From Escherichia phage SR02, in sequence record OQ870566.1: a stretch of DNA of 64,000 nt, one strand, 5' to 3'. How positions within the stretch are numbered: the first letter of the stretch is position 1; each line of letters begins with the position of its first letter. The position numbers were made by a program, and so were the translations under genes. Positions 11,073 through 43,160 of this stretch are shown here, piece after piece. The notes under the pieces were generated by a model. The model was given only the letters and a program-made list of their open reading frames with translations. It searched no databases and was not told where the DNA came from.

Positions 11073-11097
11073 CTATTCTCTCCCTCGGTTGATAGCT

Positions 11098-11127: not shown

Positions 11128-11133
11128 CTTACT

Positions 11134-13265: not shown

Positions 13266-13288
13266 TTTATACTCCTTCTACATTATCA

Positions 13289-13316: not shown

Positions 13317-13321
13317 AAACA

Positions 13322-15213: not shown

Positions 15214-15242
15214 TTGACAGGCTTTTCCTTTAATATATAGTT
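15214..15242 (+). promoter_or_regulatory. sigma70-type early promoter (TTGACA, about 16 bp spacer, TATAGT)
   Basis: Consensus -35 hexamer and near-consensus -10 read directly; about 45 nt upstream of the first plus-strand gene. Confidence 0.6.
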
Positions 15243-15285
15243 GCAATCGTATTTTGTAGTTTTCATCAACCAAAAGGAATATCAA

Positions 15286-16158
15286 ATGTCTAAAGTAGCA
15301 ATTAACCACTTGAACAAAGCAAACGAAAGCCTTTCCTCTTTGGGCTTGTCTGTTGGTAGTCCTGATGCGTGGATGGAAAACGAAAGTGCACGTAAAGGAT
15401 TCAAAAACTCTGTAATGCTGGCTTGCTTGATCATTAATTCTACTGCGAACGCCTTACAGTGTGAAGATGAAAGCACGTTCAAAGAGAATGGCTTTACCGA
15501 TATGCAGGACGCTATCAACTGTTACATTCAGGCAAATTTGGATAGCTGGAATCAGAAAGATTGGCCTGAGTCATGCCGTGATGTGAAAGCTGAATTATCC
15601 CGCTTGTCTGTCATGGTTGAAGCATGGAATAAGAAAAACAAGAAGCAACCTATCAAGCCTACTGTTGCAAGTAAGATTATGAAGTCTGTTAATCTGGCAA
15701 GTTATGCACTGGTTGCAGCGATCGGTGTTAGTGCACTGGTCACATCTCTTTCTGATAAGGCTGTTGCTAGTCCTACTCCTGCAACTGATGCGGCTAGTGT
15801 CTTCTCTAGTTCCATCAATAAGGGTTGGATGATTTGCAACGGTGCGGATAGTGACGGCAATAATACCGTGCTAAAGATGAAATTTAGCAACGTTACTAAT
15901 GATGGCGTTCTCTTTCAATCTAAAACGTTAGATAATCAGCCTAACAGTGATCTAGTTCTCAAGCGTACCGATAACGATGCGGATATGGTTACATTTGGCA
16001 CTGTACAACGTTACGAAGACGTTAAAGCTGTCACCAACCTAGTGAGTTATGGTCCGGTTAATGAGTCGATGATCGCCACTACTGTTTACAATAATGCCGA
16101 TAACGCTGTTTATACCGTTCACGTTAATTTAGCCAACTGCATTAAGGCTAGTAAGTAA
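15286..16158 (+). CDS. hypothetical early protein (290 aa) with one hydrophobic segment
   Basis: ATG with AAAGGAA RBS directly downstream of the promoter; the upstream TTG start in the ORF track is rejected. Confidence 0.6.
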   Translation: MSKVAINHLNKANESLSSLGLSVGSPDAWMENESARKGFKNSVMLACLIINSTANALQCEDESTFKENGFTDMQDAINCYIQANLDSWNQKDWPESCRDVKAELSRLSVMVEAWNKKNKKQPIKPTVASKIMKSVNLASYALVAAIGVSALVTSLSDKAVASPTPATDAASVFSSSINKGWMICNGADSDGNNTVLKMKFSNVTNDGVLFQSKTLDNQPNSDLVLKRTDNDADMVTFGTVQRYEDVKAVTNLVSYGPVNESMIATTVYNNADNAVYTVHVNLANCIKASK

Positions 16159-16184
16159 ATAACCTATTTTTGGGAGTGTAAATA

Positions 16185-16451
16185 ATGGCTATTAAAGAAG
16201 TTAAATTATCTAACGGTTTTTCTTGTTTTGTTGGTGGAAGCTCTATCCTGTTTAATACACTTGATGGTCAGATAACGTTACCTGTTATCACTTTTTGCAG
16301 GATGGAATTTCAACCTCTTAAGGATTGGTTAGCCTTTGCTAATTTTGAAATTACCCGTGAAGACTTCAAATCAATCTATATTGACGGTGATTTGTCACTG
16401 GCTAACCTGCTCAACCATGGGCTGAATGGGGATGATATTAATGGGGAATGA
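16185..16451 (+). CDS. hypothetical protein (88 aa)
   Basis: ORF in co-directional early array. Confidence 0.45.
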   Translation: MAIKEVKLSNGFSCFVGGSSILFNTLDGQITLPVITFCRMEFQPLKDWLAFANFEITREDFKSIYIDGDLSLANLLNHGLNGDDINGE

Positions 16452-16689
16452 AACTATCGCGTTAATTGATACGCATAATTACGGTGGCGTTACGCTATCC
16501 TTTGATGAATCAACCGACGTTGGATATTTATCTTTTCTTTCTAAAGGTGAGATACAAACTATCCGCTTTCCTATTGTTTGTTTGGTGCAAGATTATCTAA
16601 CTGTTGGGAAGTATTTAGCCCAACGTGGGATTCTTCTGTCGCTGGAAGAAGTGGAACAGGTTAGCGTAGCATTTTTTTGGCGAGGATAG
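16426..16689 (+). CDS. hypothetical protein (about 83-87 aa)
   Basis: ORF overlaps the previous gene end; alternative in-frame ATG at 16441. Confidence 0.4.
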   Translation: MGMILMGNETIALIDTHNYGGVTLSFDESTDVGYLSFLSKGEIQTIRFPIVCLVQDYLTVGKYLAQRGILLSLEEVEQVSVAFFWRG

Positions 16690-16799
16690 CAACTAGTGAT
16701 TCATGATTATTTTTGGCGTTGCTTGTTCGTTGTTACAGTGGCGTTATTCGTCGCTGATGTGCTTTATTCTTACGTTCTTTAATTAAGAGGTTTATTGCT

Positions 16800-17165
16800 A
16801 TGTGGTTTATTAAATTCATCGTTAAAACGGTTGTAGGCTTCTTTCTGGTCGTTCTTCTGTTGGGTGTCCTGCTATCGGCTATGGGTAGCGTTAAAGCTGC
16901 AACGTTTTCCCCTGCTACGGTGGAAGGTTTACAGTGCACCTATTTGATAGAAAACTATTCGACTGGTAAAAAGTCACCTAAGGTTATTATTTTACATGTA
17001 AATGATTTCGATCATGTACAATCATATGATAAAACTATTCAACTGGTAAATGAATCCACTGGTAAACAAATCACGGTCGATCACTTGATGCGCTCATCGT
17101 TAACGCTCTTTGATGAGTCCATGAATGAAATGGCATCCGGTTTAGGTCAATGTGTAAATCCATAG
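16800..17165 (+). CDS. hypothetical membrane or secreted protein (121 aa)
   Basis: N-terminal hydrophobic helix (VVGFFLVVLLLGVLLSAMG). Confidence 0.5.
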   Translation: MWFIKFIVKTVVGFFLVVLLLGVLLSAMGSVKAATFSPATVEGLQCTYLIENYSTGKKSPKVIILHVNDFDHVQSYDKTIQLVNESTGKQITVDHLMRSSLTLFDESMNEMASGLGQCVNP

Positions 17166-17241
17166 GCTTAATCTTTCTCCTTTATTGTGCCGTAGTCATG
17201 CCTATGGTCATAATTTATCTGATTCTCTAAATCCTTCCTGT

Positions 17242-17270
17242 AAGCCTCCTAGTGAGGCTTTTCTCTTTTA
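17242..17270 (+). terminator. rho-independent terminator
   Basis: Hairpin AAGCCUC-CUAGU-GAGGCUU followed by UUCUCUUUUAU. Confidence 0.5.
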
Positions 17271-17469
17271 TAGGGTGATTGTATTCCTTACTCCCTTTTA
17301 GCTCGTTGTGATGCGTTACAGGCCGTTAAATGGTGCTTTACAAGCCTTTTCCTACGATGTATCACGCGCGCCCGTTCCTTTACCTCCTGATTTCTTCCGG
17401 TGTCCTATCAACAATAAAATAAATTCCTTTATAAAACAGTGAGATATAAAATAATTTGAAAAAAGGGTA

Positions 17470-17497
17470 TTGACAGGGTTTTCCTGTATAGTAATAT
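17470..17497 (+). promoter_or_regulatory. sigma70-type early promoter (TTGACA, 16 bp, TAATAT)
   Basis: Consensus hexamers read directly. Confidence 0.6.
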
Positions 17498-24713: not shown

Positions 24714-24789
24714 GCGCTCTTAGCTCAATGGATAGAGCAGTAGCCTTCTAAGCTATTGGTTACAGGTTCGAGTCCTGTAGGGCGCACCA
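24714..24789 (+). tRNA. tRNA-Arg (anticodon UCU)
   Basis: 76-nt cloverleaf folded by hand: acceptor GCGCTCT/AGGGCGC, D-stem GCTC/GAGC, anticodon stem GTAGC/GCTAT with loop CTTCTAA, T-arm ACAGG-TTCGAGT-CCTGT, encoded CCA. Confidence 0.85.
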
Positions 24790-26972: not shown

Positions 26973-27227
26973 ATGAAAGTTAACGAATTGAACAAAACTA
27001 CCAAGACAGTGAAACTGCACACTCTGAAAAAGGGTGATACATTCCGTTTAGAGGAGAATGGACCAATCCACATGGTCTGCACTGCTGAATCTACTAATTG
27101 GGTGGAAGTTGCACGAGATCGAGTAGTGTGTGTCAGGCTGGAAGATGGTAATCTGAGTGGTCCGGTCGAGGGTATTCCTGTTATCCCTGTTAAAGTTGAA
27201 GCTAACGTTATTAAGGGTTCTAAATGA
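26973..27227 (+). CDS. small paralog-family protein (84 aa)
   Basis: LKKGDTFRLE motif. Confidence 0.5.
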   Translation: MKVNELNKTTKTVKLHTLKKGDTFRLEENGPIHMVCTAESTNWVEVARDRVVCVRLEDGNLSGPVEGIPVIPVKVEANVIKGSK

Positions 27228-27469
27228 AAATCATCCCTAAGAAAAAGGATAATACAGTAAAATTGGAAACAATTATTCCTGGAAATCCTTTCGTGGTTCA
27301 GAACGGAAGCGCCTCTCCTCAGTATTACATGAGGGTTGAAAATGCTTCTTGTAACATCCGTATAGCCAGTGGTTGGGTTCCTGTGGTAAACCTTTCCACA
27401 GGTGTACTATCTGTTAAAGGTCTTGACGATCAGGTAGAAATGATTCGTATGTCAGTGGTTCAGGAGTAG
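27224..27469 (+). CDS. small paralog-family protein (81 aa)
   Basis: VVNLSTGVLSV motif. Confidence 0.5.
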   Translation: MKIIPKKKDNTVKLETIIPGNPFVVQNGSASPQYYMRVENASCNIRIASGWVPVVNLSTGVLSVKGLDDQVEMIRMSVVQE

Positions 27470-27474
27470 TGCAT

Positions 27475-27723
27475 ATGAGCATTATTAACATTAAAGTTAA
27501 AGACAAAGAGGAAAAAATCCTCCGTGTCAGAGATCTAAATATGTCAGATGTGTTTACTCTCCAAGAGTGCCAGAATCAAAAGGTTTATATGATGACAGCT
27601 AAAAGCAGGGGTTGTCAACCTGCTGGAGCTGTTAACTTAGGCACTGGAGAACTGCGTGTCATCTCTGGTGATATGGTTGTTGGTGAGAAGTTTATTAAGG
27701 CTGAAATCATCTTAACTTCGTAG
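27475..27723 (+). CDS. small paralog-family protein (82 aa)
   Basis: AGGAG RBS; VNLGTGELRVISGD motif. Confidence 0.5.
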   Translation: MSIINIKVKDKEEKILRVRDLNMSDVFTLQECQNQKVYMMTAKSRGCQPAGAVNLGTGELRVISGDMVVGEKFIKAEIILTS

Positions 27724-27954
27724 GAAAACAAATGAGACGTAAAGCATATTCTTATGACGATATGATTAACCAGAAAGGCTTCGGTCAACGACAGCCTGAC
27801 GGTTCAATTATCTGGTTCGTAAACGGACAGAAAAAGGTAGCTAAATAAGCCCTCTTCTCTCCTCCTTTTAGTACTATGACGCCTCTCTGTGGGCGGCCCA
27901 ATTTGCGTAGGGAATTCCCTCTACGCAGCCATGACTTTTTAAGGAATTTCCCAT

Positions 27955-28188
27955 ATGTCTAAAGTAAGCGCAATCAATGCAATCCGTCAACCGTTCCAGT
28001 TCCAATCCAAATCAACCCAAACCTTCAGTGAGCCTAAGCAGATTCGCTTGGGTGGCACGGAGAAAACTGTGTTCGATCTGGCTAAAAACAAGAGCGTTAC
28101 TGTAGTTGATGGTGGCACTCTGGTTAACGTTTCACATCGTATCCGTACTGGCAAAACTGCCAAAGATCGTGCCAAGAAAGGTGAATGA
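27955..28188 (+). CDS. hypothetical protein (77 aa)
   Basis: ORF after a conserved intergenic element. Confidence 0.45.
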   Translation: MSKVSAINAIRQPFQFQSKSTQTFSEPKQIRLGGTEKTVFDLAKNKSVTVVDGGTLVNVSHRIRTGKTAKDRAKKGE

Positions 28189-28454
28189 TGAAAGTAAAAA
28201 GAGCAAATGCTCCAATACCAAAAAAGGTCAGGATTGATCAAACGAAACCAGGTGAAGTTGTTCGATTTATTGATAGTGAAAAACTCTACCTTGTGAGTAA
28301 ACTGACCAATTTAGCATCTATCAGTGTTAACGATCCACTGATGCCACAACTCGTATACATAACCAATCTTGATACTGGTAATGTTATTGACCTACGACCA
28401 GATACTCAGGTTGTTAGAGTTAAAGCTGAATGTGAATACATTGAGGATGTATGA
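28185..28454 (+). CDS. small paralog-family protein (89 aa)
   Basis: KPGEVVRFID and NLDTGNVIDL motifs. Confidence 0.5.
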   Translation: MMKVKRANAPIPKKVRIDQTKPGEVVRFIDSEKLYLVSKLTNLASISVNDPLMPQLVYITNLDTGNVIDLRPDTQVVRVKAECEYIEDV

Positions 28455-29133: not shown

Positions 29134-29368
29134 TTGTAGTAACGCCTATAGCCTTCTTCGGAGGGCTATGTGAGTTATTCTGACTCAACTAACCTAATCT
29201 TAATATATTTCCCGTATGGGGCCGATGCTAGGGCGAGGAATACTCCTCAAACATCCGTCGGATAGATATTTTAAGAGCAGGTTATCCACAGATATTGGGT
29301 AATATCTTTTTGGATTTAAAGCTTGACTCTTTTCGGAGAGTCCTTTTTTAAATTCAATGAGAGGAAAT

Positions 29369-29523: not shown

Positions 29524-29886
29524 ATGAATACACGTCCCATCAAGGGCAACGTTAATATTGAAACTCTGAACAAGGTTGCATCAAACCTCGGTGGAATGTC
29601 CAACGATGAGCTTGAGCAAGAACTTGCTTGGATTGCAAATGGTATCAAAGTTGCTAAAGGTAAGATTACTCGTGAGCAAAGCAACATGAAAGCTCACAAG
29701 TATATCATCCGTCGTGCAAATGTGTTACCAGAGCGGGTTGTACATCTTGCCCGTAAAAACTATGCAGAAGCAAAGAAAGCTCTGGAAGAAGCTACTTTCC
29801 AGAAGCATCAATTTATGAACAACTATAGAAACTTCCGAGATATTCTTTATATCCGTAAGTCGATTGAGTTGATTAAAAACCAATAG
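29524..29886 (+). CDS. hypothetical protein (120 aa)
   Basis: ORF with RBS. Confidence 0.5.
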   Translation: MNTRPIKGNVNIETLNKVASNLGGMSNDELEQELAWIANGIKVAKGKITREQSNMKAHKYIIRRANVLPERVVHLARKNYAEAKKALEEATFQKHQFMNNYRNFRDILYIRKSIELIKNQ

Positions 29887-29897: not shown

Positions 29898-31097
29898 ATG
29901 TTTCCAGTAACATTAGAAGATACTGAAGGTAATGTTTTAACGGTCAACCCTCCTTGTTATGGGTTCCTTCAGCTTCGCAACTATAACGGTGGCGTTGATG
30001 AAGACGATGACGAATATGATGACTACTTCGACCCTAACATGTATGAGGCAACTCATGGGTGGAATATGCACGTTCGAGTGTGGCATGAAGAAGCTAACGT
30101 TCGTAGTGCTGATGGGGAAGAGTTCCTGTTAAGCCGAGAGATGGATATGTGTAAAATCAAGCATATCTGGAACTCTGGAACTCATATGAAGATGTTAGGT
30201 TTTAGACGTTGGCGTGATGAAAAGCATGTAGCTGAAGCTTTAAGTTGGTGTTCGTATGAAGATGAAGACACACCTCCCAAGAATAACATTGAACGTTGGA
30301 ACGACAAAAACCCTGAACATCGAACCACACCTCGTGCTGTACTGGAAGCTATGGAAGCATTTGTGGACAAAGGTCGTCCCTCCTGTTTACGCTGGCACGA
30401 TAAAGGTTTTATGGGGGTAGCAACTGAGAACATTCCTGCTGATCGTTGTCTGTTCTATTTAATGTTAGACCGAACCTTCTATTGTGAAGATGAAGAGAGT
30501 CAAGTTGAAACCTTCCTTCATAAATGGTTGGTTGAGGGCTGGACAATCCTTCAGGCTTATGTTTACTCACGAATGGTTAGCACTTACACTAACCTCTTAG
30601 GGGAAACGAAAGCAACTCTGGTTGGTAATGATTGGGATGCTTGTATTTTCCCAGCGTCACTGTTTACAGTCGGCATGGCTGATAAATACGCTGAAGCATT
30701 TCAAGTTCCTTGGCGTCAACAGTCATATAGAGATGGGTGTGGTCATTTCCGTGATGAAGATTTTAAGTGGATTCATTATGAGAATGATGAAACAGCAGAG
30801 TTACGAGTGAACAACTCAATGTTCTTGCCGGTTATGCACCCTGATCTAGTAAAAGATGAGTCAGAAATACTCAAAGGTGACAACCTTCTGGTTACCTTTG
30901 CTCGTCGGGTATCTAAAGATGAAAGAACAGCTGACAGATTAGTCTACGCTTATCGCGCTGAGACTAAAGATATGTTCAACATCTACAACATTATTCAGCG
31001 ATTTAGTAGTGGAACTCTGGACCAAAGTTCGGAGTATTCAGTGATTCCATCCTCTGAGTGGGATGGTATTATGAGCGGATTATTTTTAGGAAAATAA
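29898..31097 (+). CDS. hypothetical protein (399 aa), first gene of the amidoligase island
   Basis: Long ORF; acidic N-terminal segment; no recognised motif. Confidence 0.6.
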   Translation: MFPVTLEDTEGNVLTVNPPCYGFLQLRNYNGGVDEDDDEYDDYFDPNMYEATHGWNMHVRVWHEEANVRSADGEEFLLSREMDMCKIKHIWNSGTHMKMLGFRRWRDEKHVAEALSWCSYEDEDTPPKNNIERWNDKNPEHRTTPRAVLEAMEAFVDKGRPSCLRWHDKGFMGVATENIPADRCLFYLMLDRTFYCEDEESQVETFLHKWLVEGWTILQAYVYSRMVSTYTNLLGETKATLVGNDWDACIFPASLFTVGMADKYAEAFQVPWRQQSYRDGCGHFRDEDFKWIHYENDETAELRVNNSMFLPVMHPDLVKDESEILKGDNLLVTFARRVSKDERTADRLVYAYRAETKDMFNIYNIIQRFSSGTLDQSSEYSVIPSSEWDGIMSGLFLGK

Positions 31098-31107
31098 AAG
31101 GTTAGTT

Positions 31108-32079
31108 ATGTCAATCTCCACAACGATCGTACCTCTGAATCTTCAACAAGATTTAGGGGAACAGAAGTTCTTAGGTCGTGGGTGCTTCGGTATCCACAAC
31201 TACATGCAAGGCCAGTGTGTAAATGATATTAATGGTGAAGTTATAACTGAAGAGGGGCGTTATAGACGCTTCAACCGTGATATCAACTTGCAATTGGAGA
31301 TGTTGAATTACTGGACTCACTCTTTTCACGGTCATATTGCATCTGATATTGAAAAGAACTTGGTTGAAACAGCAGACATTATGAACTCTATGTCTTGCTA
31401 TCGTGATGTATTTACGATCACTTCAGCGAATAGTGTTGCTGTCAACCTTCGTGAGCATCCAGCAGATCAGATCTTCACAGGACTTATGCTCTTCCGTAGT
31501 ATTCTGGAAGGGCAATATCGTGGAATGGATTTCCTAGCAGAAGGAATTGAAGACAGGGAAGAGTGGCTGAAGCGTAAACGCATCGGCATCGCTCTAGTGT
31601 TAGCTGGGTTGGGTCGTGACTTCTTCGGTGGATGGTCTCAACGAGGAAGAGCCAATGGGAGTAGTGAGAGCACCTCTATTGTTATTAACAACAATATGTC
31701 AGCAGCAGCATTCCTTCCTTTGGTTGTAGACTCTGATGAATACACGAAGCAAGTGTGGGTTCAAAACCCCTTCGGTGTTGGCGACAACGAGAATGGTTAT
31801 GTTCGTAACCATAACCAAGATGCCTTACGAAGATTTGCTCGTGCTAAAGATCAAGACCCGGACGAGTATGAAACAATGTCAGAGTGGTTAAGACTCTGGT
31901 CCAACTGTTATGGTCACAAACGTGAAGCAATAGACGACAAGTTGGGAAACATTACAGTACAAAACTTTACAGCCCGACTAATTCAGCGTACTGGTCCAAG
32001 CTCTGGCCTTACTACTGAAGAAGTTGGTAACACAATCTCATCTCTCTTTTCTGAACTAGTGGAGTATTACAATGACTAA
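31108..32079 (+). CDS. hypothetical protein (323 aa)
   Basis: Long ORF in the island; no recognised motif. Confidence 0.6.
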   Translation: MSISTTIVPLNLQQDLGEQKFLGRGCFGIHNYMQGQCVNDINGEVITEEGRYRRFNRDINLQLEMLNYWTHSFHGHIASDIEKNLVETADIMNSMSCYRDVFTITSANSVAVNLREHPADQIFTGLMLFRSILEGQYRGMDFLAEGIEDREEWLKRKRIGIALVLAGLGRDFFGGWSQRGRANGSSESTSIVINNNMSAAAFLPLVVDSDEYTKQVWVQNPFGVGDNENGYVRNHNQDALRRFARAKDQDPDEYETMSEWLRLWSNCYGHKREAIDDKLGNITVQNFTARLIQRTGPSSGLTTEEVGNTISSLFSELVEYYND

Positions 32080-32878
32080 GCGCAAATTCCTTATCGGCTC
32101 TGACCCTGAAATGTTTGTTCGTACCAGCAATGGTATTATCACCTCTGTGGCTGGTCTGTTAGGCTGTTCTAAGGACGATAAGATCACTCTGGCTAAGGAT
32201 GTTCGTCTTCAAGAGGACAACGTACTGGCTGAGTTTGATATTGACCCACAGAGCGGCTTTGAGGCGTTTAACGATAACATGCAACGTGGTATCGATCTCA
32301 CCAACAATGTCCTGAACAAACTGGACATGGAAACAGCTCCGGGTGTTAGCTCTCACATCTTCACTGAAGAAGAGATGAAGACTTTCAACGAATCAGCGTT
32401 CATCTTCGGGTGTACTCCTGATTTCAACGCTTTCACTGGTCAGAAGAATCCATCCCCGACTTCTCAGAATAAAGGGCTTCGTACTGCCGGTGGTCACGTA
32501 CATCTCGGCGTAGTTGGTGCTTTGGATATTACTTTGCAAACTCAGATGATGCTGGGTGTGCTGTGTGACTACTTCCTGTCCCTCCCAGCAGTTATTATGG
32601 ATAAAGATACTCGCCGTAAAGAACTGTACGGCAAAGCTTCTGCAATCCGTTATAAAGACTATGGTATTGAATACCGTTCACTGTCTAACTTCTGGATTAG
32701 TGATCGTGAAAACCGTAAGTTTGTTTACGATCAGGTTGACAAGGTTGTTCAGCAGTGTGATATGTCCACTCTGATGGCATTGCACTCTCGCCTTCCGATT
32801 GAGAAGCTTCATGAAATCATTAACGGCAACAACGTTAAAGAAGCGGACCAGCAGATCAAACTCCTTCAGGTAGCATAA
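32072..32878 (+). CDS. putative carboxylate-amine ligase (amidoligase-like paralog)
   Basis: GSDPE...RTAGGHVHLGV...EYRSL motif set resembling the HVH box and acidic metal ligands of the glutamine-synthetase-like fold; tentative. Confidence 0.4.
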   Translation: MTKRKFLIGSDPEMFVRTSNGIITSVAGLLGCSKDDKITLAKDVRLQEDNVLAEFDIDPQSGFEAFNDNMQRGIDLTNNVLNKLDMETAPGVSSHIFTEEEMKTFNESAFIFGCTPDFNAFTGQKNPSPTSQNKGLRTAGGHVHLGVVGALDITLQTQMMLGVLCDYFLSLPAVIMDKDTRRKELYGKASAIRYKDYGIEYRSLSNFWISDRENRKFVYDQVDKVVQQCDMSTLMALHSRLPIEKLHEIINGNNVKEADQQIKLLQVA

Positions 32879-32887
32879 GAGGTTATC

Positions 32888-33505
32888 GTGAGCTTAGTAG
32901 CTGATTTTTCTCATTACTATAATGGTACATGGATTGCTAAACGAGCAGGTAATATCAACCTTCCATGTTTTGTGATTGGTGTTGAGCAGAGCGGTAACTT
33001 CCGCAGCGATGACTTCTCTCACGAAGCAGAGCAGGCTCTGTATTTTGTTGTAGAGCAGTGGTACAAGAATGAGCAAGGGAATCTTCGAAACACTACGATG
33101 AATATTCCAGTGTTCGACCCAACCTTGATTCTTGAATCACCTGATGTTGGTTATCTGTTCCATAACGGTAACACTGTAAGCTGGACTCATATTAACCCTG
33201 TTCGTCAGAGAGCAAAGGGTTTGATGGGTAATAAGATTCGAAATGCTCCGGGTGTTGGTCGTGCCATCTCCGGGGAGATGGTTTACAGCCTGTTCAATCC
33301 TGAATTCGAGGGATTGGTTACTCGTTATATTTACATCAACCCTACTGATGGTAAGGTGCATTATAAAGGTGCACTGGTAGGACAAGTAGATCTGGAAGCA
33401 CCTCGTGACTCTTACGGTCAGCAATCAATGCGACTTCTGGAACACTTTCATCACATTTCTGAAAACCTTAGCAATTACAATATTACGTTGGTGGATTCGT
33501 TATGA
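32888..33505 (+). CDS. hypothetical protein (205 aa)
   Basis: GTG start, overlap-coupled. Confidence 0.5.
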   Translation: MSLVADFSHYYNGTWIAKRAGNINLPCFVIGVEQSGNFRSDDFSHEAEQALYFVVEQWYKNEQGNLRNTTMNIPVFDPTLILESPDVGYLFHNGNTVSWTHINPVRQRAKGLMGNKIRNAPGVGRAISGEMVYSLFNPEFEGLVTRYIYINPTDGKVHYKGALVGQVDLEAPRDSYGQQSMRLLEHFHHISENLSNYNITLVDSL

Positions 33506-34605
33506 CAACTGTAGCGCAAACTTTTGGATATCGAGAAGGTCGTTTAACTGAGGCGCATAGTTCAATTGCACTTCAGTGCGGTGTCGGTATTGAACTTGAA
33601 CTCGAAGGTTCCGATCATATCGAAGCAGATATGTGGGATTGTACAGAGGATGGTTCCCTGCGTAATGGTTGTGAAATGGTATGTTCACGACCTTACAACG
33701 GACAGGAGTTGTTAGACGCTATCAACAACCTGAGTGAAGCAGTAGCTGAATCGCACGCCGAGGGGACTTGGCGTTGCTCTACTCACGTTCATATGGATAT
33801 GAGGGATGCTGATAGTAATATCCTCAAGAAAACCATTCTCGCTTGGACCTTCTATGAAAAGATGTTGTTCAAGTGTTCAGGCTATCATCGTTACCGTAGC
33901 AACTTCTGCCCTGCGTTTGCAGTGGTACAAGCACAGGTAATGAATGCCTCTGACGCATTTAACTACGACGATGAAGAGTTCTTCAACCGTCTGGTTCGTT
34001 CATGGGATAAGTATACATCCCTGAACCTTCTGCCACTTGCCCAATACGGTTCGATTGAATTCCGTATCAGTGAGCCTAAGTGGAAACGTGGTCAACTTCT
34101 CAATCTGGTTAACCGCTTCTTGATGTTGAAGAAGCTGGCTTTAGATAACGCAGAGATGAGCAATGATCAGTTTATTGAGCATTTAAATACTGTACGATTT
34201 GCCCCAATGCTTCCTTACCTTCCTCTGGATTACAATCTGGACGAATCGGATTTGCATTCAGGGTATTGTATGGCCCGTGATGTTTTGTATTGCCGTTCTC
34301 ATGGAGTAGAGCAGTCTGGTCGTATTCGTTTACGTCGAACCAACTCCAACGGAGAAGTTCTTGTTGACTTACGTCTTATCTCAGACTTCTACGGATTCCT
34401 TGGATATGTACGAGGGAACGCTAACAACTTGTACCAAGAGATTCTGGTTATGCTTCGTACAACTGACCTATCTACTGTACGATCTGCACCAGAGCAACGT
34501 ATCCGTGCTATTTTTGACTTACTGCGTGAGTCAGGTCACAGTGATAGCAATATCACAGGGTACATTCCAGATCATCTGGAAAATCAGTTAGAGCAAGCGC
34601 TGTAA
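33502..34605 (+). CDS. amidoligase (Amidoligase_2-like carboxylate-amine ligase)
   Basis: GVGIELELEG...CSTHVHMDMRD...FRISEP motifs; genomic context with GAT-like and AIG2-like genes matches the family's known neighbourhoods. Confidence 0.6.
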   Translation: MTTVAQTFGYREGRLTEAHSSIALQCGVGIELELEGSDHIEADMWDCTEDGSLRNGCEMVCSRPYNGQELLDAINNLSEAVAESHAEGTWRCSTHVHMDMRDADSNILKKTILAWTFYEKMLFKCSGYHRYRSNFCPAFAVVQAQVMNASDAFNYDDEEFFNRLVRSWDKYTSLNLLPLAQYGSIEFRISEPKWKRGQLLNLVNRFLMLKKLALDNAEMSNDQFIEHLNTVRFAPMLPYLPLDYNLDESDLHSGYCMARDVLYCRSHGVEQSGRIRLRRTNSNGEVLVDLRLISDFYGFLGYVRGNANNLYQEILVMLRTTDLSTVRSAPEQRIRAIFDLLRESGHSDSNITGYIPDHLENQLEQAL

Positions 34606-34684
34606 TCAATGGGTGCCTCTGATAAAGGGGCACAATTTAAAGGTTAATTAGATGAAAGGGTTTACCCTTCAGGTGGATTAGAAA

Positions 34685-36715
34685 ATTTGTGGCATCGTAT
34701 TAGCTGGCGGTAATCTGTCAAGCACTGATTTAGATGTATTCAACCAACTCTTTTATGCTGGAGTGTTCCGAGGACAACATTCCTCTGGTATCTTTGGTCA
34801 GCGTAAGAGCACTAAGGAAGTCTTCACCTATAAAGAAGCCCTTCCTTCTTTCGCATTCATCCTTCAAGATGAGTACAAGAAGCACACCACTGGTGAAACA
34901 GCTTACACTGTAGCACCTTCATGGATTGTTGGTCATAGCCGTCATGCAACGAAAGGTGCAGTTAACGCCAAGAACGCCCATCCTTTCCAACATGGTAACA
35001 TCACTCTGGTTCATAACGGAACCTTGATGGACCAAGATCTGTTACCTGACAGCAAAAACTTCGAGGTAGACAGTGAGAACATCTGCCACTCTATTAACAC
35101 TATTGGTGCAGCAGAGACTATTCAAAAGCTGGATGGTGCTTTCACCTTAATCTGGCATGATGCTTCTGACAACCGTCTTCATATCATCCGTAACGAAGAG
35201 CGTCCATTCCATCTCGCACGTTGTAACAGAGATTGGTTTGGTGCTTCTGAAGAAGACATGTTGATGTGGATTCTGAAGCGTTCTAAGTCTCACAAGAACC
35301 GTATTGATGAGCACTTTGAATGTAAAGTTGGTACAGAGTATATCTTTGACATGTCAAACAACAGTATGACTCTAGTTGAAGAGGTCGCCCACGAGCTTCC
35401 GGTTTTTACGGTAATCAATCGTTGGGGCAATTACTACTCGAACAACTACAGCCAAAGCAATTATCAAAGTTCCTCAAAAAGCAGTACAAGCAATCCTTAC
35501 GACACGAAGCCGGGAGTGACAGCGGCAGACGTTCGTCGAAGAAACGCAGTGGTAAGTCAAAACAAAATCGCAAGCGATCGAAACATTGATATTCGCCGCG
35601 ATATGACTGTGGAAATCACACCACATGAGTTTATTCCTTATGCAACTGCTGGTGCTGTTCCTTCTCGTGGTAAGATGATCGGTTATATCTACGATGAGAA
35701 GTCTCAAGAGTATATCGAAGGTGATGTTCATAACGTAGACATTAAGGCTTATCAGGATGCCCTGAAAGACCCTAAAATTGTTTACCGTGGGACAGTATCC
35801 TGTATCTCCGAAGTTAATGCTATGGTTCGTTTAGTGATCACAGCAGGTCGTTTTGTTGACCCATCTCTGGAGAAAAAGGAGCCTGAGTCTACTACTGCTG
35901 ACTTTGATGATGATATCCCTTTTGATATGAATGATAGTTTCGTCAATAAGAATGGCGTTACTATCACTCGTAAATTCTGGGAAGCACACTCTCATGGCGA
36001 TTGCGGTGGTTGTGACAAACACATTGATTGGAAGGATGCACCTAAAGCAGTCTTCGCATATCAGTGCTATTGGCACCCTGAATGTCTGGAAGGTTTGACT
36101 AAACCTAAAGATGAAGAAGAGGAGGAAACTCCTATTGGTGTTTGTGAAATCTGCGGTGAAGTTAAAACAGAGAACGAGTTCGATGATGAACTTAGTCGTC
36201 TTCGTGGTGAAGATATCTGTAAAGTCTGCGCTGTAGATGTAAAGAAGAAAGTATCTAATGCTACAATCAAAGATGGTTATGTCTGGATTAAAGCAACAGA
36301 TACAACAAACGCCCGTCGTCCTGAATTTGCTTTACGTGTAACTGAAGATATGATTGGTCGTATGACTGTATTACCTTCCTCAGCGAAACAGACAGGCATC
36401 ACTCTGGAGGATGTTGTTGACGCTTATGTTGAGAAACGTAGCAACAGTATTTTTGCAATCTCAACTAAGCCAAAAAAGGAGGAACCTGCTGAGAAAGCAG
36501 GTGTGTTTCCTGAATCACGAACAGCTCTCCGCAAAACTGTTGTCAGCTTCGACGGAAACCGAAGCACTGACTTCACCAAAGCCATGTGGTCAACCCTCGG
36601 CTACTGCTCAGAGTGTTTTAAGCAGATTCCGTGGCGCGATGCTGAAAGTTGTACGCTTGGTTCTATGAATCAAGTTTATTGTAATTCTCCTAAATGTTCA
36701 TTGAATAGAGGTTAA
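34685..36715 (+). CDS. class II (Ntn-type) glutamine amidotransferase with C-terminal Cys-cluster domain; predicted AUU start
   Basis: Translation from 34685 gives (M)CGIVGLAG...GHSRHATKG...HNGTL...DSE; no in-frame ATG/GTG/TTG between the upstream stop and the catalytic Cys codon; AGGTGG 8 nt upstream of ATT. Confidence 0.7.
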   Translation: MCGIVLAGGNLSSTDLDVFNQLFYAGVFRGQHSSGIFGQRKSTKEVFTYKEALPSFAFILQDEYKKHTTGETAYTVAPSWIVGHSRHATKGAVNAKNAHPFQHGNITLVHNGTLMDQDLLPDSKNFEVDSENICHSINTIGAAETIQKLDGAFTLIWHDASDNRLHIIRNEERPFHLARCNRDWFGASEEDMLMWILKRSKSHKNRIDEHFECKVGTEYIFDMSNNSMTLVEEVAHELPVFTVINRWGNYYSNNYSQSNYQSSSKSSTSNPYDTKPGVTAADVRRRNAVVSQNKIASDRNIDIRRDMTVEITPHEFIPYATAGAVPSRGKMIGYIYDEKSQEYIEGDVHNVDIKAYQDALKDPKIVYRGTVSCISEVNAMVRLVITAGRFVDPSLEKKEPESTTADFDDDIPFDMNDSFVNKNGVTITRKFWEAHSHGDCGGCDKHIDWKDAPKAVFAYQCYWHPECLEGLTKPKDEEEEETPIGVCEICGEVKTENEFDDELSRLRGEDICKVCAVDVKKKVSNATIKDGYVWIKATDTTNARRPEFALRVTEDMIGRMTVLPSSAKQTGITLEDVVDAYVEKRSNSIFAISTKPKKEEPAEKAGVFPESRTALRKTVVSFDGNRSTDFTKAMWSTLGYCSECFKQIPWRDAESCTLGSMNQVYCNSPKCSLNRG

Positions 36716-36717
36716 GT

Positions 36718-36951
36718 ATGGAAATTCGTAAGATGATGCTGGATAACGTTGTAACTACTCGACGTATCCCGATGACGAGCACAGGATGTGATAACCTTCG
36801 TGCAATCCAGAAGTGGATGCAAGCTGGTATTGGTCAAGTACTTGAGACACAGGTTGAGGTTCCTTTCCCAACGGTGATCAATAACGTACTTGCTGATTAT
36901 GTAAAAATCAAAGGCATTAAGGTAGAACCTCATGTCAAATCTGGTTCCTAA
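36718..36951 (+). CDS. hypothetical protein (77 aa)
   Basis: ORF in island. Confidence 0.4.
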   Translation: MEIRKMMLDNVVTTRRIPMTSTGCDNLRAIQKWMQAGIGQVLETQVEVPFPTVINNVLADYVKIKGIKVEPHVKSGS

Positions 36952-37156
36952 GAAACCGAAGATCACTCTCCTACAATATTACATAGGAGTTCATATCGAA
37001 TTAGTAACGGAGCAGCGAAAGCTGTATCCGTTCGCTTTCGGTCTGATTGATGCACCATCCGATGAAGTAGAGAACGACGCGTTCAACGACTACTTCGAAA
37101 TTGAAGCTCAGATTCAAAAAACTCGTAACGAAATTCTTAAACTTAAAGGTATCTAA
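36932..37156 (+). CDS. hypothetical protein (74 aa)
   Basis: ORF in island. Confidence 0.4.
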   Translation: MSNLVPKKPKITLLQYYIGVHIELVTEQRKLYPFAFGLIDAPSDEVENDAFNDYFEIEAQIQKTRNEILKLKGI

Positions 37157-37158
37157 CA

Positions 37159-38355
37159 ATGACTACTCGTATCCGTGTTCTTCCTTATGGCCCTTCTGAT
37201 TCAGTTCGTGAACTTACTTCTGCAATTAACACTAAGATTCAGGAACTTCGACTAAATGCTAACGTAATGTCTCTGGTATCAGAAGGCTCTCGTTATCGTT
37301 CTCGTGTTGGTGATATTGTTGTCAACTACGGAAACCGTCGATACAACGACTCTTTCTTTGGTGGCGCAACTGTGTTGAACTCTGTGGTTGCCTTGAACCG
37401 AGCGGCTAACAAAGTTGCAGCATTTAACGCACTGCGTTTAGCTGAAGTCAAAACTGTTGAATACACCGTCGATCGTGAAGTAGCTCAGAACTGGAACCGG
37501 AATGAAATTGTTTATGAACGTGGAACCTTAACTGGTCACTCTGGAGAAGGTATTACTGTTCGTCTTACGCGAGAAGGTGTTGCGGATGCTCCTCTATACA
37601 CCAAAGGCATCCAAGGCCCACGTCGTGAATGGCGTGTTCATGTGTTCGAAGGTGTTATCACTTACGTTCAGAAGAAGATTCGTCGTAATGGTTATCGTGA
37701 ACTGGAAAGTTATCGTGAAGATATTCGTAACCATCACACTGGTTGGGTTTATTCTAACTCCTTCACTGAAGCGCCTCCTGATCAAGTTCTTATTCAAGCT
37801 CACAAAGCTGTATCTGCTCTGGGTTTGAACTTCGGTGCTGTTGACCTGATTAGCAAAGGTACTAACGCATGGGTTCTGGAAGTTAATACAGCTCCGGGCC
37901 TGACTGGCACAACTCTGGAAACCTACACTCACAACATCGTTGAGTTTGTTAAGAGTTTCTCTGGTGTTGATCCTGACTACCGCGTTGCTTACGAACTGCC
38001 TGTTGAAGAAGTGGAAGAAGAATTTGCTGAATCGGCAGATGACGAAAACTTTGCATTGGCAGCTGAGCCAGTTGCTGAAGAGTCTTCGGAGCCTGTTCCT
38101 GAAACAATGCAAGTTGAAGAACAAGGGTTAGAGATCAACCCGGTAACCCGTCGTAATCTGCGTCGTGGTTATTATATCGCTAACATCAAGCATCCTGAAA
38201 ACGGTTCGACTGTAGCAAGTAACGTGATCTTGTTCTTCTGTGGTCGTAACTTCTACCGCTCTGGATGGAACGCACCAATTAGTGATCGTCAGCTTGGTCG
38301 TGTGTTGCAGATTAATAGCCTTACCCTGAATGATGGCACTGTTGTAAACTACTAA
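37159..38355 (+). CDS. ATP-grasp family ligase
   Basis: GAVDLISKGTNAWVLEVNTAPGLTG ATP-grasp signature; acidic C-terminal tail. Confidence 0.75.
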   Translation: MTTRIRVLPYGPSDSVRELTSAINTKIQELRLNANVMSLVSEGSRYRSRVGDIVVNYGNRRYNDSFFGGATVLNSVVALNRAANKVAAFNALRLAEVKTVEYTVDREVAQNWNRNEIVYERGTLTGHSGEGITVRLTREGVADAPLYTKGIQGPRREWRVHVFEGVITYVQKKIRRNGYRELESYREDIRNHHTGWVYSNSFTEAPPDQVLIQAHKAVSALGLNFGAVDLISKGTNAWVLEVNTAPGLTGTTLETYTHNIVEFVKSFSGVDPDYRVAYELPVEEVEEEFAESADDENFALAAEPVAEESSEPVPETMQVEEQGLEINPVTRRNLRRGYYIANIKHPENGSTVASNVILFFCGRNFYRSGWNAPISDRQLGRVLQINSLTLNDGTVVNY

Positions 38356-38361
38356 GGATAT

Positions 38362-38610
38362 ATGGATATGTTTTCATTGGAAGATCTAGTACAAAATGGA
38401 ATGATGGAACAAAAAGAGCCTCTGATTGTAGGCTCTCGTAAAGAGTTGCGTAAATTGTGTGAGGAGTGGGGTATTACTAATCAGCGAATGATTGGTAATC
38501 AATTCTCTGCAATTGTAACTTTCCTAAAACGTGGTGATAAGTATTCTATGGAATGTGTAGAACGTATCATCGCTGAAGCACAACAAGATAAAGGAGTAAC
38601 ATATCTGTGA
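38362..38610 (+). CDS. hypothetical protein (82 aa)
   Basis: ORF in island. Confidence 0.45.
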   Translation: MDMFSLEDLVQNGMMEQKEPLIVGSRKELRKLCEEWGITNQRMIGNQFSAIVTFLKRGDKYSMECVERIIAEAQQDKGVTYL

Positions 38611-38813
38611 ATAAGTATAAAGTCCTGTTTAAAGATACCAATGCAGCTGGCGAAATGCGAGCAATGGATATTGACGCTGAATACTTCCGAAGTGAGCTTG
38701 ATCAGATAGTATTCTATGAGCGCGGTAGTCGACCTGCTAATGAATCAGAAGTTATTGCTTCATTCGGTAAAGAAGCAATCTGCGGTGTAATCAAAATCTT
38801 TATTACAGAGTAA
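38607..38813 (+). CDS. hypothetical protein (68 aa)
   Basis: GTG start overlapping previous stop. Confidence 0.35.
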   Translation: MNKYKVLFKDTNAAGEMRAMDIDAEYFRSELDQIVFYERGSRPANESEVIASFGKEAICGVIKIFITE

Positions 38814-38882
38814 TCTGCTCTAGTCTCTTCGAAAGAGGAGGCTAGTTCGGATAAACTAAACAAACCAACAAAGGTATAGATA

Positions 38883-39302
38883 ATGTCAGAAGTAATTTAC
38901 GTAGCAACTTATGGTTCTCTTCGTCGTGGTCAAGCTAACTATCTAGTTAATGACCGAGCTGGTGCTAAGTCAATTGGTGAAGGTTGGACTGAAGACAACT
39001 TTGATCTGTTCCGCTATGGTGGTTCCTACTTCCCAAGCATCTCTCTCGCACACAGCAATAACAATAAGCCTGTTCGTGTAGAAGTGTTTGCTACTGACAA
39101 AGCAGGTCTGGAAGGTCCATACGATCGTCTGGAAGGTTACAATAAACGTAGCCCTGAAGATAGCTTCTATCAACGAACTCAGATTGCCGTTAAGCTGGAC
39201 TCAGGTGAAACTGTTATCGCTTGGATTTATCACATTGACGAAGAACAAGATGTTCTGGTTGAATCTGGCGACTGGTCAGAGTATCTGAAAAGTGAATCTT
39301 GA
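38883..39302 (+). CDS. gamma-glutamyl cyclotransferase-like (AIG2/GGCT family) protein
   Basis: N-terminal YVATYGSLRRGQANY matches the AIG2 YGSL/TL motif; 139 aa size typical. Confidence 0.6.
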   Translation: MSEVIYVATYGSLRRGQANYLVNDRAGAKSIGEGWTEDNFDLFRYGGSYFPSISLAHSNNNKPVRVEVFATDKAGLEGPYDRLEGYNKRSPEDSFYQRTQIAVKLDSGETVIAWIYHIDEEQDVLVESGDWSEYLKSES

Positions 39303-41312: not shown

Positions 41313-41860
41313 AGAAAAAGAAAGTGTTTGCATTCGATATCGAGAGTAATGCACTGTACGATGACATAACTAAAGTGTGGTGTATTTACATCTTCGATGT
41401 TGAAACTGGTGAAAGGTGGGGCTATCGGCCTCACCAAATTGAAGATGGGATTCGTAAACTTACAGAAGCTGATGTGCTCGTAGGTCATAATATTATTGAC
41501 TTCGACCTTTGTGCTCTGAAGAAGATGTATCCCAATCTGATCGACTATCGTTTTAACGTCTTTGACACTTTATGTCTTAGTCGATATCTTAAACCTGACC
41601 GTATTGGTGACAGTCCTGAGTATCCGAAAGGCGACCCTAGACATGGCCCAAGAGGTCATGGCTTGAAGCAATGGGGTGAGTTCTTAGAGGAACTTAAAGG
41701 TGACTACGGTGAGCAAGAGGAAGCATGGGATGCTTTCACTGAGGATATGTTTACTTATTGTGAACAGGACGTTAACTTAACTGTTAAGGTTTATCTTTTC
41801 TTGTGTGAACTCACGGGATTTGACCCTTACGACCCACCTTCATTATATTGGAAAATGTAA
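41306..41860 (+). CDS. 3'-5' exonuclease (DnaQ-like), T7 DNA polymerase exonuclease-domain homolog encoded separately
   Basis: Exo [11 protein letters not shown], Exo [11 protein letters not shown], Exo [16 protein letters not shown]; by recalled T7 gp5 sequence aligns to its first ~190 residues; likely start is the GTG at 41324. Confidence 0.8.
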
Positions 41861-41861
41861 A

Positions 41862-43160
41862 ATGATTGTTATCCCGATTAACCGAATTGAAGATAAGGTT
41901 GCTCAACAACCTGATATCACTGTTGGTCGTCACTTTATTGAACAGTTGATTAACAACAACTTGATTCCAGATTGTATTTGTCCCATCATCACTGGTGGGG
42001 CTGTTCGTGATGCTGTTCTTAATAATAGAGCACCTCATGACATTGATATCTTTATTGTCAGAGGACAGGCACCAAGAACCCAAAATACTTTTATCCATCA
42101 TGACCAGTGGCAAGATCTCGGACGAGAGGTTGAAAGTAATGTGAAAGAGTGGCTCGAGTCTCAAGATATTGAGTACTCTTCCCTTCTTGCTGAATCTACA
42201 GATGAGCCGTATACTGGGACTTCTCAACTAACATTCACTGATATTATTGAGTTTCAGTGGAATGGGGTTCGTATCCAATTCATGTTTAACTATCCTACTT
42301 CTATTGAAGAGGTATTGGATAATTTTCCTATGATGTGTCGTGGTGCGATGACTCTTGACAAGCTGTTCATGACCCCCCATGGATATTTGTCTATGACCTC
42401 TCCTTGTCCAGTAGTTGTCTCTGGTCGTGAAATCAAGTATGTTCACAAGAAGTGGCCTAATTCACAGGTATTAAGATTCTCCTCTCCATCTGTTGCATAC
42501 CAATATATGGCACAATCTCGATATCTTCCTACACCTCAACCAGTTAATCATCTGGTCAACGAACGAGGTCAGGTTGCTCTTATTGAGGATACAACAAGTG
42601 CTCAGTATTGTGTTGACCGTGACATGAGTCGATTCTTTGGAATCCCTTATGAAGAGATTCAGTTAATGTCAAGCACACATGGCTCTAGCCAGATTCATGC
42701 GTATTGGTCTGAAGGGTTGACAAATTTAACAACTAACACGGGTGGTGATCTACTTGGTCGAGAAGAGGAACCTAACCGACACAATGCAATTGAAGGGGTG
42801 TTTGTAGCCCCTGCAATGCGTAGAGCACAAGAGTCACGAAGAGTAAGCCCTACTCGTAGAACATCTTTTGAAGAAGCTCTTGGTATTACAAGAGATTCTA
42901 TGGAGAGATGGATGGCTAGCACCTCTCGTGGTCGACCAAATGGTTTGACTGTCAGCCGTCATCAGTTCTCTGGTCAGGGCTTTGCTGTTGGCGATCTTGA
43001 TATTCCTTCTCATGGTGAGCTGGCTGAGACTGTCAGTCGCAGTCTCGCTGATCGCTTTGTTGCTAACAACCCTGAAGTATTAGAACCTCAAACCCGTACA
43101 GTTCGGTTTGCTGATGAAGCGGGTCGTGGAATCTCTTTTGACGTAGAAACAAATAACTAA
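41862..43160 (+). CDS. nucleotidyltransferase with CCA-adding-enzyme / poly(A) polymerase-like head domain
   Basis: IITGGAVRDAVLNNRAPHDIDIFIV matches the class II tRNA-NT/PAP head motif GGAVRD...D.D; remaining ~330 aa unassigned. Confidence 0.6.
   Translation: MIVIPINRIEDKVAQQPDITVGRHFIEQLINNNLIPDCICPIITGGAVRDAVLNNRAPHDIDIFIVRGQAPRTQNTFIHHDQWQDLGREVESNVKEWLESQDIEYSSLLAESTDEPYTGTSQLTFTDIIEFQWNGVRIQFMFNYPTSIEEVLDNFPMMCRGAMTLDKLFMTPHGYLSMTSPCPVVVSGREIKYVHKKWPNSQVLRFSSPSVAYQYMAQSRYLPTPQPVNHLVNERGQVALIEDTTSAQYCVDRDMSRFFGIPYEEIQLMSSTHGSSQIHAYWSEGLTNLTTNTGGDLLGREEEPNRHNAIEGVFVAPAMRRAQESRRVSPTRRTSFEEALGITRDSMERWMASTSRGRPNGLTVSRHQFSGQGFAVGDLDIPSHGELAETVSRSLADRFVANNPEVLEPQTRTVRFADEAGRGISFDVETNN

Follow-up and report, generated by a model that had tools for sequence, protein, structure and literature searches.

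What do the enzyme genes at positions 29,898 to 39,302 of the Escherichia phage SR02 sequence (OQ870566.1) build, and do they form a new system? We analyzed a 64,000-nucleotide (nt) stretch of this genome, here called the window, in which a sequence-only reading had singled out this block as an accessory island and an undescribed system. The source phage was found to be a Kuravirus (phiEco32-like coliphage) of the subfamily Gordonclarkvirinae, and the block corresponds to phiEco32 genes 88 to 77. Judging from sequence comparison, it is close to certain that the block is the phiEco32 copy of the known podophage amidoligase cassette. Its enzymes are predicted to comprise three ATP-dependent carboxylate-amine ligases (gp86, gp84 and gp80) and two enzymes of glutamine or gamma-glutamyl amides (gp83 and gp77).

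Nucleotide identity between the block and phiEco32 was 95-97% (95.4% by megablast), and the cassette proteins were 95-100% identical to the phiEco32 copy. With positions 29,898-39,302 as query, megablast returned 98 phage records, 65 of them with at least 80% query coverage, mostly at identities of 90-99%. All matches were podophages of Escherichia or Shigella that belong to Kuravirus or its relatives, phiEco32 included. The RefSeq annotation of phiEco32 lists the block as phi32_88 down to phi32_77 and names its enzymes COOH.NH2 ligase, amidoligase enzyme, L-glutamine-D-fructose-6-phosphate aminotransferase, ribosomal protein S6 glutaminyl transferase (the ATP-grasp protein) and gamma-glutamyl cyclotransferase. 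According to citing papers, the cassette was reportedly described by Iyer, Abhiman, Burroughs and Aravind in 2009 and by Hardies et al. in 2013 (phage RIO-1). In PMC5498523, PMC11945000 and PMC10580990, the same gene set is presented as a putative peptidoglycan-modification cassette with phiEco32 among its carriers; the carriers given in PMC5498523 are phiEco32, 7-11, PA11, tf, MR299-2, LUZ24, PaP3, CW02 and RIO-1. The block is thus the type example of a module already annotated and published, with a Pfam family (PF14395) named after phiEco32, and the claim of novelty had to be given up.

The five enzyme open reading frames (ORFs) all lie on the plus strand in a single tight co-directional array, at the positions that the sequence-only reading had given (Table 1). 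Start and stop codons overlap at 32072/32079, 33502/33505, 36932/36951, 38607/38610 and 39292/39302. The GC content of the block (0.43-0.445) falls inside the range of the window (0.38-0.46). Neither a phage gp36-type promoter on the coding strand nor an Rfam element was found inside the block. The transcription unit may begin at the terminator-like hairpin ahead of gp89, and the hairpin between gp84 and the amidotransferase gene has an ordinary folding energy (z = -1.1). In the annotated genomes examined, the cassette stands shortly upstream of primase/helicase or other replication genes. As read from the sequence, the cassette is a core operon that directly precedes the replication genes, in the predicted early/middle gene region.

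Table 1. Positions of the cassette genes and of nearby features in the window
Feature	Position	Strand	Description and basis
Hairpin with T run	29325-29351		Terminator-like; ahead of gp89
gp89-like ORF	29524..29886	+	120 aa; first gene past the terminator-like hairpin; 97% identical to phiEco32 gp89
gp88	29898..31097	+	First tandem paralogue, heading the cassette; phage-only family
gp87	31108..32079	+	Second paralogue; family directly upstream of the ligase in many phages
gp86	32072..32878	+	Carboxylate-amine ligase type 2 (phiEco32-type); PF14395 COOH-NH2_lig
gp85	32888..33505	+	Conserved protein without enzyme-like features, flanked by the two ligases; may be an adaptor, carrier or substrate
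gp84	33502..34605	+	Amidoligase_2 carboxylate-amine ligase; PF12224
8-bp GC-rich hairpin	34613-34634		No T run; within the 79 nt that separate gp84 from gp83
gp83 ATT start region	34679-34690	+	Good Shine-Dalgarno sequence AGGTGG at 34670-34675
gp83	34685..36715	+	Class II (Ntn) glutamine amidotransferase with C-terminal extension; GATase_6, GATase_7
gp82	36718..36951	+	Small conserved 77-aa protein encoded between gp83 and gp80; PHROG 9477
gp81	36932..37156	+	Small ORF, 74 aa, Kuravirus only (phiEco32 orthologue alone found); PHROG 13464
gp80	37159..38355	+	RimK-like ATP-grasp ligase; orthologue profile against RimK structures
gp79	38362..38610	+	Known host RNA polymerase regulator; 99% identical to phiEco32 gp79
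gp77	38883..39302	+	GGACT/AIG2-like gamma-glutamyl(amine) cyclotransferase; PF06094

The same ordered set was found in Salmonella phage 7-11, Cronobacter phage GAP52 and Vibrio phage Vp_R1 (Grimontviridae), in Aeromonas phage 4_4572 (Lahexavirus), in LUZ24-like Pseudomonas phages (Bruynoghevirus) and, in a rearranged form, in Pseudomonas phage K4 (Zobellviridae). We then analyzed 87 loci, including 80 IMG/VR contigs, with an iterated hidden Markov model for each component; many of the gaps fall at contig ends. Ligase-2 (the gp86 family) was present in all 87 loci, a gp85-like protein in 82, amidoligase-2 (gp84) in 84, the amidotransferase (gp83) in 84 and the ATP-grasp ligase (gp80) in 79, with the cyclotransferase (gp77) in 42 and a gp82-like protein in 27. 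The order of ligase-2, gp85-like protein, amidoligase-2, amidotransferase and ATP-grasp ligase, followed by the cyclotransferase in some loci, was near-invariant and held at merely 28-50% protein identity. Amidoligase-2 precedes the amidotransferase in nearly all of the 84 loci with both, while the cyclotransferase gene adjoins the ATP-grasp gene or lies a few genes off. A scan of IMG/VR with the gp86 profile gave at least 568 matches confirmed by tblastn. Among 50,697 cultured-phage records, gp86 occurred in 304 and gp84 in 302, with nearly identical counts per genus. This grouping of the cassette genes is far beyond chance.

Within Gordonclarkvirinae, about 97 records carry the cassette (one of them a 69-kb reduced genome), which equals the number carrying the primase/helicase at 80% identity or more. 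Because the two counts agree, the cassette is a core feature of the subfamily and not the accessory island that had been proposed, in keeping with its unremarkable GC content. Neither unrelated folds nor a lack of joint conservation was found: the predicted folds are not unrelated, and the genes stay together across very distant phages. The five family calls of the sequence-only reading were also right, with Pfam matches above the cut-offs and, for the ATP-grasp protein, a RimK match of a 10-orthologue profile.

Regarding the two ligases that flank gp85, gp86 matched PF14395, 'Phage phiEco32-like COOH.NH2 ligase-type 2', with 34.1 bits (cut-off 25; 2.2e-8) and PHROG 3815, 'COOH.NH2 ligase', at 3e-118, and it is 100% identical to phiEco32 gp86. 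gp84 matched PF12224 Amidoligase_2 with 33.8 bits (cut-off 22; 4.1e-8) and belongs to PHROG 7469, 'amidoligase enzyme'. The invariant residues are H142, H144 and E200-Y-R202 in gp86, and E31, E33, E35, R54, H95, H97 and E186-F-R188 in gp84, so that HxH and ExR motifs are kept in both. Profile searches gave no match in PDB sequences for either family, and hhalign of one family against the other aligned the HxH motif alone (E = 0.032). The predicted glutamine-synthetase-type fold of the two proteins rests on Pfam membership and the published 2009 analysis.

The amidotransferase gp83 scored 55 bits against GATase_6 (cut-off 27; 1e-14), 27.5 bits against GATase_7 (cut-off 25; 3.4e-6) and 21.3 bits against GATase_4, under the cut-off of 23. 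Its amidotransferase domain spans about residues 2-235 and begins with (M)CGIV, where the cysteine nucleophile is residue 2. The glutamine-site motifs HSRHATKG, VHNG and VDSE, which hold the Arg, Asn-Gly and Asp of GlmS and PurF, are intact. NCBIfam gave partial matches to the N-terminal domains of GlmS, PurF, AsnB and EgtC, the last of them weak (2.5e-4). The three CxxC-type clusters that had been noticed in the C-terminal part could be located as three zinc-ribbon-like clusters of four cysteines each (C440/443/461/467, C487/490/512/515 and C641/644/666/671). Apart from these clusters, the C-terminal 440 residues gave no family match and no acceptor (synthase) domain.

The start codon of gp83 is unusual. 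The frame reads TAG AAA ATT TGT, and the phiEco32 sequence is identical there. Because the TAG stop lies two codons upstream and the cysteine codon follows directly after ATT, translation must start at AUU for the cysteine to serve as N-terminal nucleophile. An N-terminal MCG or ICG was present in 74 of 85 amidotransferase ORFs, and in these 74 with a resolvable N-terminus the start was ATT in 10 and ATC in 1, in unrelated lineages (e.g. loci L028, L047, L078, L082 and L007). By analogy with infC, the recurrent AUU start suggests that low or regulated translation may have been selected.

In gp80, an ATP-grasp region at about residues 1-270 is joined by an acidic linker to a small C-terminal domain (residues 317-398) that is conserved. 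As a single sequence it misses the Pfam ATP-grasp cut-offs (16-17 bits vs 21-24), and the profile of 10 orthologues matched the RimK structures 5zct and 4iwx over residues 41-254 with E = 1.8e-7. The closest NCBIfam models were MptN and the RimK-family alpha-L-glutamate ligases, along with weak matches to ribosomal-peptide maturases. The whole protein is PHROG 2599, with PHROG 20552 covering just the C-terminal domain. In RefSeq, gp80 is labeled 'ribosomal protein S6 glutaminyl transferase', a family name and thus a predicted function. gp77 matched PF06094 GGACT with 63.8 bits (cut-off 22.8; 2.8e-17) and PHROG 2520, and retains the motifs YGSL (residues 10-13) and LEGY (residues 83-86), the latter with the catalytic Glu. 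Across the long orthologues of the other enzymes (amidotransferases up to 846 aa, ATP-grasp proteins up to 750 aa and amidoligases up to 643 aa), no fused domain that would indicate a substrate was found.

The sequence-only reading had also placed three large proteins without recognizable motifs ahead of the enzymes; this is correct for gp88 and gp87, whereas gp85 lies between the two ligases. Neither single-sequence nor profile searches of Pfam, PHROGs, NCBIfam, PADLOC and PDB sequences were informative for any of the three. An exhaustive profile search found only 23 relatives of gp87 among 1.84 billion representative proteins. The predicted structure of gp88 is confident, and a solved structural relative was not found. 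Against viral models, Foldseek matched the gp88/gp87 family to both upstream proteins of GAP52 and of the Aeromonas LAh phages, and also to a Proteus phage protein, each with a probability of 0.99-1.0. When we clustered the ORFs directly upstream of ligase-2, gp87 grouped with the A and B proteins of Grimontviridae and of the Aeromonas phages and with single marine-contig ORFs of about 300 aa. The profile of this gp87-containing family matched the gp88 family with 95.5% probability (E = 1.5e-8), and gp87 and gp88 have the motifs C-[FY]-G, PAD, LMLxR and G[HY]xR in common. Residues C26, F27, D120, L126, R130, Y231 and R233 of gp87 are kept in at least 27 of 33 family members. A direct hhalign of gp88 against gp87 was non-significant (0.2% probability), and the link is visible only through the broader family profile and Foldseek. 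In view of the clustering, the family-profile match, the Foldseek results and the common motifs, we regard gp88 and gp87 as tandem paralogues of a phage-restricted family. The upstream proteins of LUZ24-like phages and Zobellviridae showed no sequence link to this family, and their equivalence is by position alone.

gp85 (about 200 aa, 23.3 kDa) is modeled as an SH3/Tudor-like barrel, and its best-conserved segment is a basic loop (residues 84-127) that is predicted to be disordered and carries invariant Arg and near-invariant Lys residues. Pfam, NCBIfam and PDB searches gave no catalytic family for it. Neither gp85 nor gp82 has a C-terminus that is conserved across lineages or that offers a Glu/Gln handle, and gp85 lacks a GGQ or GGE ending.

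How might these proteins work together? The catalytic motifs are intact in gp86, gp84, gp83 and gp77, and the enzyme families and their ordered conservation support the proposal that the genes act as one unit in building and trimming an amide or gamma-glutamyl linkage. We lean toward a ligation-and-trimming logic on a small cytoplasmic acceptor. Each ligase would activate a carboxylate as an acyl-phosphate, which would then be capped by an amine, with gp80 as the most likely glutamate adder by analogy with its nearest relatives RimK and MptN. Because of their near-invariant adjacency, gp84 and gp83 are probably paired in function: gp84 would either take the ammonia that gp83 frees from glutamine, in a glutamine-dependent amidation, or make a gamma-glutamyl amide that gp83 hydrolyzes. 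gp77 would release gamma-glutamyl units as 5-oxoproline. The acceptor could be the carboxylates of cytoplasmic peptidoglycan stem-peptide precursors (D-Glu alpha-COOH, meso-diaminopimelate epsilon-COOH and terminal D-Ala COOH), and the wall would then be altered during infection. We tentatively hold peptidoglycan precursors to be the single most likely acceptor by analogy, since three carboxylates are free in the stem peptide of Gram-negative bacteria, and ligase-amidotransferase pairs are established to amidate carboxylates of this kind. In PMC11945000, which concerns a LUZ24-like phage, two roles are proposed, the prevention of superinfection and the preparation of the wall for lysis; PMC10580990 and PMC11318856 trace the proposal of a cell-wall and superinfection role in phiEco32 back to Iyer et al. 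2009. The functional claims for the cassette in these papers and in PMC5498523 are in-silico proposals only.

Several points weigh against this picture. The peptidoglycan target is argued solely by analogy, and the searchable literature yielded no experimental test of any cassette step. Profile searches linked the gp86 and gp84 families neither to each other nor to a solved structure. gp83 may be a hydrolase and not an ammonia donor, because it has no recognizable acceptor domain. Further, the barrel and disordered basic loop of gp85, the gp87/gp88 pair and the zinc ribbons of gp83 look like parts that handle a macromolecule, not a nucleotide-sugar-peptide. Such features would suit a protein-borne pathway, in which the acceptor is a phage protein, gp85 is the candidate tag target or carrier (cf. 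LysW/LysX and graspetide maturation) and gp87/gp88 are scaffolds or extra enzymes. This pathway fits the conserved non-enzymatic partners better than peptidoglycan does: gp85 always lies between ligase-2 and amidoligase-2 where it was found, its stop codon overlaps the gp84 start, it has no catalytic family, and its conserved yet predicted-disordered loop is typical of a partner-folded segment or a substrate. The weak matches of gp80 to ribosomal-peptide maturases point the same way. So does proteomics of purified SU10 phage preparations (orthologues at 7524-17482 of our locus L089), which detected the ATP-grasp ligase, the amidotransferase, the cyclotransferase and a CCA-type nucleotidyltransferase together with hypothetical proteins whose masses equal those of gp85 (23.3 kDa) and gp89 (13.9 kDa), labeled 'early gene products' by the authors. 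However, the table of the SU10 paper is numbered differently from GenBank, and the 23.3-kDa protein is therefore not firmly gp85; the cassette proteins in these preparations may be abundant contaminants or packaged proteins. gp85 was also undetected in 5 loci, the low confidence of its loop may reflect a shallow alignment of 20 sequences, and its unconserved C-terminus, like that of gp82, excludes a Pup- or LysW-type C-terminal handle. We consider a protein-borne pathway rather unlikely, and give the same low weight to the broader idea of a macromolecule-directed, phage-specific ligation system that is no peptidoglycan modifier, in which gp85 would act as carrier or target through its loop and gp87/gp88 would bring a new enzymatic or scaffolding activity. 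A rarer variant of that idea would put the product on DNA and so explain the restriction-modification resistance of Gordonclarkvirinae.

Less probable again is a small-metabolite pathway that makes or turns over a gamma-glutamyl compound in the cytoplasm of the host, for instance a thiol resembling glutathione, a gamma-glutamyl-polyamine or some other amide, for metabolic reprogramming or as a signaling or anti-defense molecule (cf. the gamma-glutamyl cycle, EgtA/EgtC and BtrJ/BtrG). The enzyme inventory does amount to four gamma-glutamyl-cycle activities (glutamine-synthetase-type ligase, ATP-grasp ligase, Ntn hydrolase and cyclotransferase), gp83 matches EgtC weakly, and amidoligase and amidotransferase are counted as auxiliary metabolic genes in the literature. 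Yet Pfam and long-orthologue scans showed no transporter and no thiol- or polyamine-specific domain with the cassette, three conserved proteins without an enzyme signature are hard to fit, and the hosts, from Alpha-, Beta- and Gammaproteobacteria to Bacteroidota, are not known to have a gamma-glutamyl metabolite pool in common. A nucleic-acid modification, by which an amino-acid-type group would be put on phage DNA or a nucleotide precursor, appears improbable. It would account for the BASEL study's finding that Gordonclarkvirinae strongly resist restriction-modification by a mechanism that is not known. The window keeps 10 EcoRI, 29 EcoRV, 5 EcoKI and 82 EcoP1I sites, so site avoidance is rejected as the cause of resistance to these four; the window is depleted of CCWGG (9 vs about 70-80 expected) and GATC (147 vs 236-301 expected) and lacks PstI, SacI, BamHI, KpnI and SphI sites. 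In annotated genomes that were examined, a primase/helicase or DnaB-type helicase gene follows shortly downstream of the cassette, which would also agree with nucleic-acid modification, as would the zinc ribbons of gp83 and the Tudor/SH3-like barrel and basic loop of gp85. On the other hand, PMC11945000 reports that DNA of the LUZ24-like phage U17, which has the same module, was cut by 11 of 16 restriction enzymes. Among the block ORFs scanned, Pfam, NCBIfam and PADLOC found no base hydroxymethylase, 5-hydroxymethyl-2'-deoxyuridine (5-hmdU) kinase, transglycosylase or DpdA-type family; for the 5-hmdU-derived and 7-deazaguanine pathways, aGPT-Pplase and DpdA with Que genes were likewise absent by Pfam and NCBIfam. 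The phage has an ordinary set of ThyX, dCTP deaminase and dNMP kinase, and many independent sequencing projects have deposited these genomes. The reading that there is no system at all, only unrelated host-derived accessory genes side by side by chance, draws on the unrelated genes intermixed with the enzymes (the gp79 transcription factor and small lineage-specific ORFs) and on the cyclotransferase sometimes lying several genes away. We regard it as already refuted by the conservation data, namely five to six genes whose order is shared by 87 loci of at least five phage lineages, the near-perfect co-occurrence of gp86 and gp84, and the overlapping start and stop codons. The ligation-and-trimming logic on a small cytoplasmic acceptor remains our preferred reading.

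The other genes of the block and its surroundings are of mixed nature. gp79, encoded between gp80 and gp77, has no relation to the enzyme set; according to PMC8948821 and PMC12276001, it displaces sigma-70 and activates the phage sigma factor. Because 7-11 and GAP52 keep the cassette without gp79, we regard it as an insertion and not a component of the enzyme system. gp82 orthologues occupy the same position in their 27 loci, LUZ24-like phages included, and a strand-helix-helix pattern, an inference only, might resemble a ribbon-helix-helix (DNA-binding) domain. The gp89-like ORF has no significant Pfam family, and whether it belongs to the cassette is uncertain. In 7-11 (L002, 2672-3097) and GAP52 (L003, 2632-3057), the cassette is preceded at a distance of 1-1.5 kb by an endolysin gene transcribed in the same direction, a proximity that gives weak support to a cell-wall role. 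GAP52 also carries TerD/TerZ-like genes upstream of the cassette.

Downstream, the ORF at 41805-43160 encodes a nucleotidyltransferase whose head motif GGAVRD...DIDIF is typical of CCA-adding enzymes; the SU10 record agrees, and NCBIfam gave no match. The BASEL paper speculates that a nucleotidyltransferase of this type is tied to DNA modification. RNA ligase 2 is encoded near the cassette in GAP52 and Aeromonas phage 4_4572, and the CCA-type nucleotidyltransferase and RNA ligase 2 in relatives hint at tRNA repair. ARAGORN and Rfam identified tRNA-Arg (anticodon TCT, 24714-24789) as the sole RNA gene in the window. At 26973-28454 there is a run of small ORFs (81-89 aa) with a look-alike pattern, V.L..L..GD.F ... 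NL.TG.L, seen by eye in a MAFFT alignment; their paralogy is unsupported, as phmmer found no significant pairwise similarity.

The cassette is widespread, occurring in therapeutic-candidate phages of Pseudomonas (LUZ24-like) and E. coli (Kuravirus) and in abundant marine podophages. More than 15 years after the first prediction, experimental chemistry of the cassette was not found in the searchable literature. Identifying its substrate would give functions to two Pfam ligase families for which we found no characterized member, would put to the test whether lytic phages remodel the cell wall of their host from inside, and could possibly reveal a new protein family (gp87/gp88).

Among known systems, peptidoglycan carboxylates are amidated by ligase and amidotransferase pairs, MurT/GatD and AsnB1/LtsA. 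The likeness to the cassette lies in an ATP-dependent ligase paired with a glutamine amidotransferase that turns a stem-peptide carboxylate into an amide. MurT, however, is of the Mur-ligase fold and its partner GatD belongs to the class I amidotransferases, while the cassette ligase is of a glutamine-synthetase-type family; in AsnB1/LtsA a class II domain is fused to an asparagine-synthetase domain that gp83 lacks. The gamma-glutamyl cycle, glutathione synthesis and EgtA-EgtC resemble the cassette in combining a GCS-type ligase, an ATP-grasp ligase, an Ntn gamma-glutamyl hydrolase and a cyclotransferase. Cassette proteins match the corresponding models far under the equivalog cut-offs (20-43 bits vs 218-418), and the cassette has no sulfoxide synthase, methyltransferase or oxoprolinase. 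RimK, MptN and CofF, the nearest characterized relatives of gp80, add L-Glu to a terminal carboxylate via an acyl-phosphate; gp80 differs by its extra acidic linker and C-terminal domain.

In butirosin biosynthesis, the ATP-grasp ligase BtrJ adds a gamma-glutamyl group and the AIG2/GGCT-fold enzyme BtrG removes it as 5-oxoproline, with the intermediate on a carrier protein. That carrier is an acyl carrier protein, whereas the cassette has neither such a protein nor a phosphopantetheine site. Pupylation (PafA/Dop and Pup) is similar in having two enzymes of glutamine-synthetase-type ligase families and a disordered protein partner. Unlike Pup, gp85 has about 200 aa, a folded barrel and an unconserved C-terminus, and unlike the paralogous PafA and Dop, gp86 and gp84 have no detectable mutual similarity. 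Secondary descriptions of the phage cassette place the five enzymes inside a 'seven-gene cassette' and are silent on the gp87/gp88 paralogy, the gp85 features and the AUU start. These three points and the quantified conservation are our modest additions, as judged against those secondary descriptions; the primary papers may contain some of them. The phage amidoligase cassette itself agrees with the block in full, with the same five enzyme families at the same genome position as in the phiEco32-type module.

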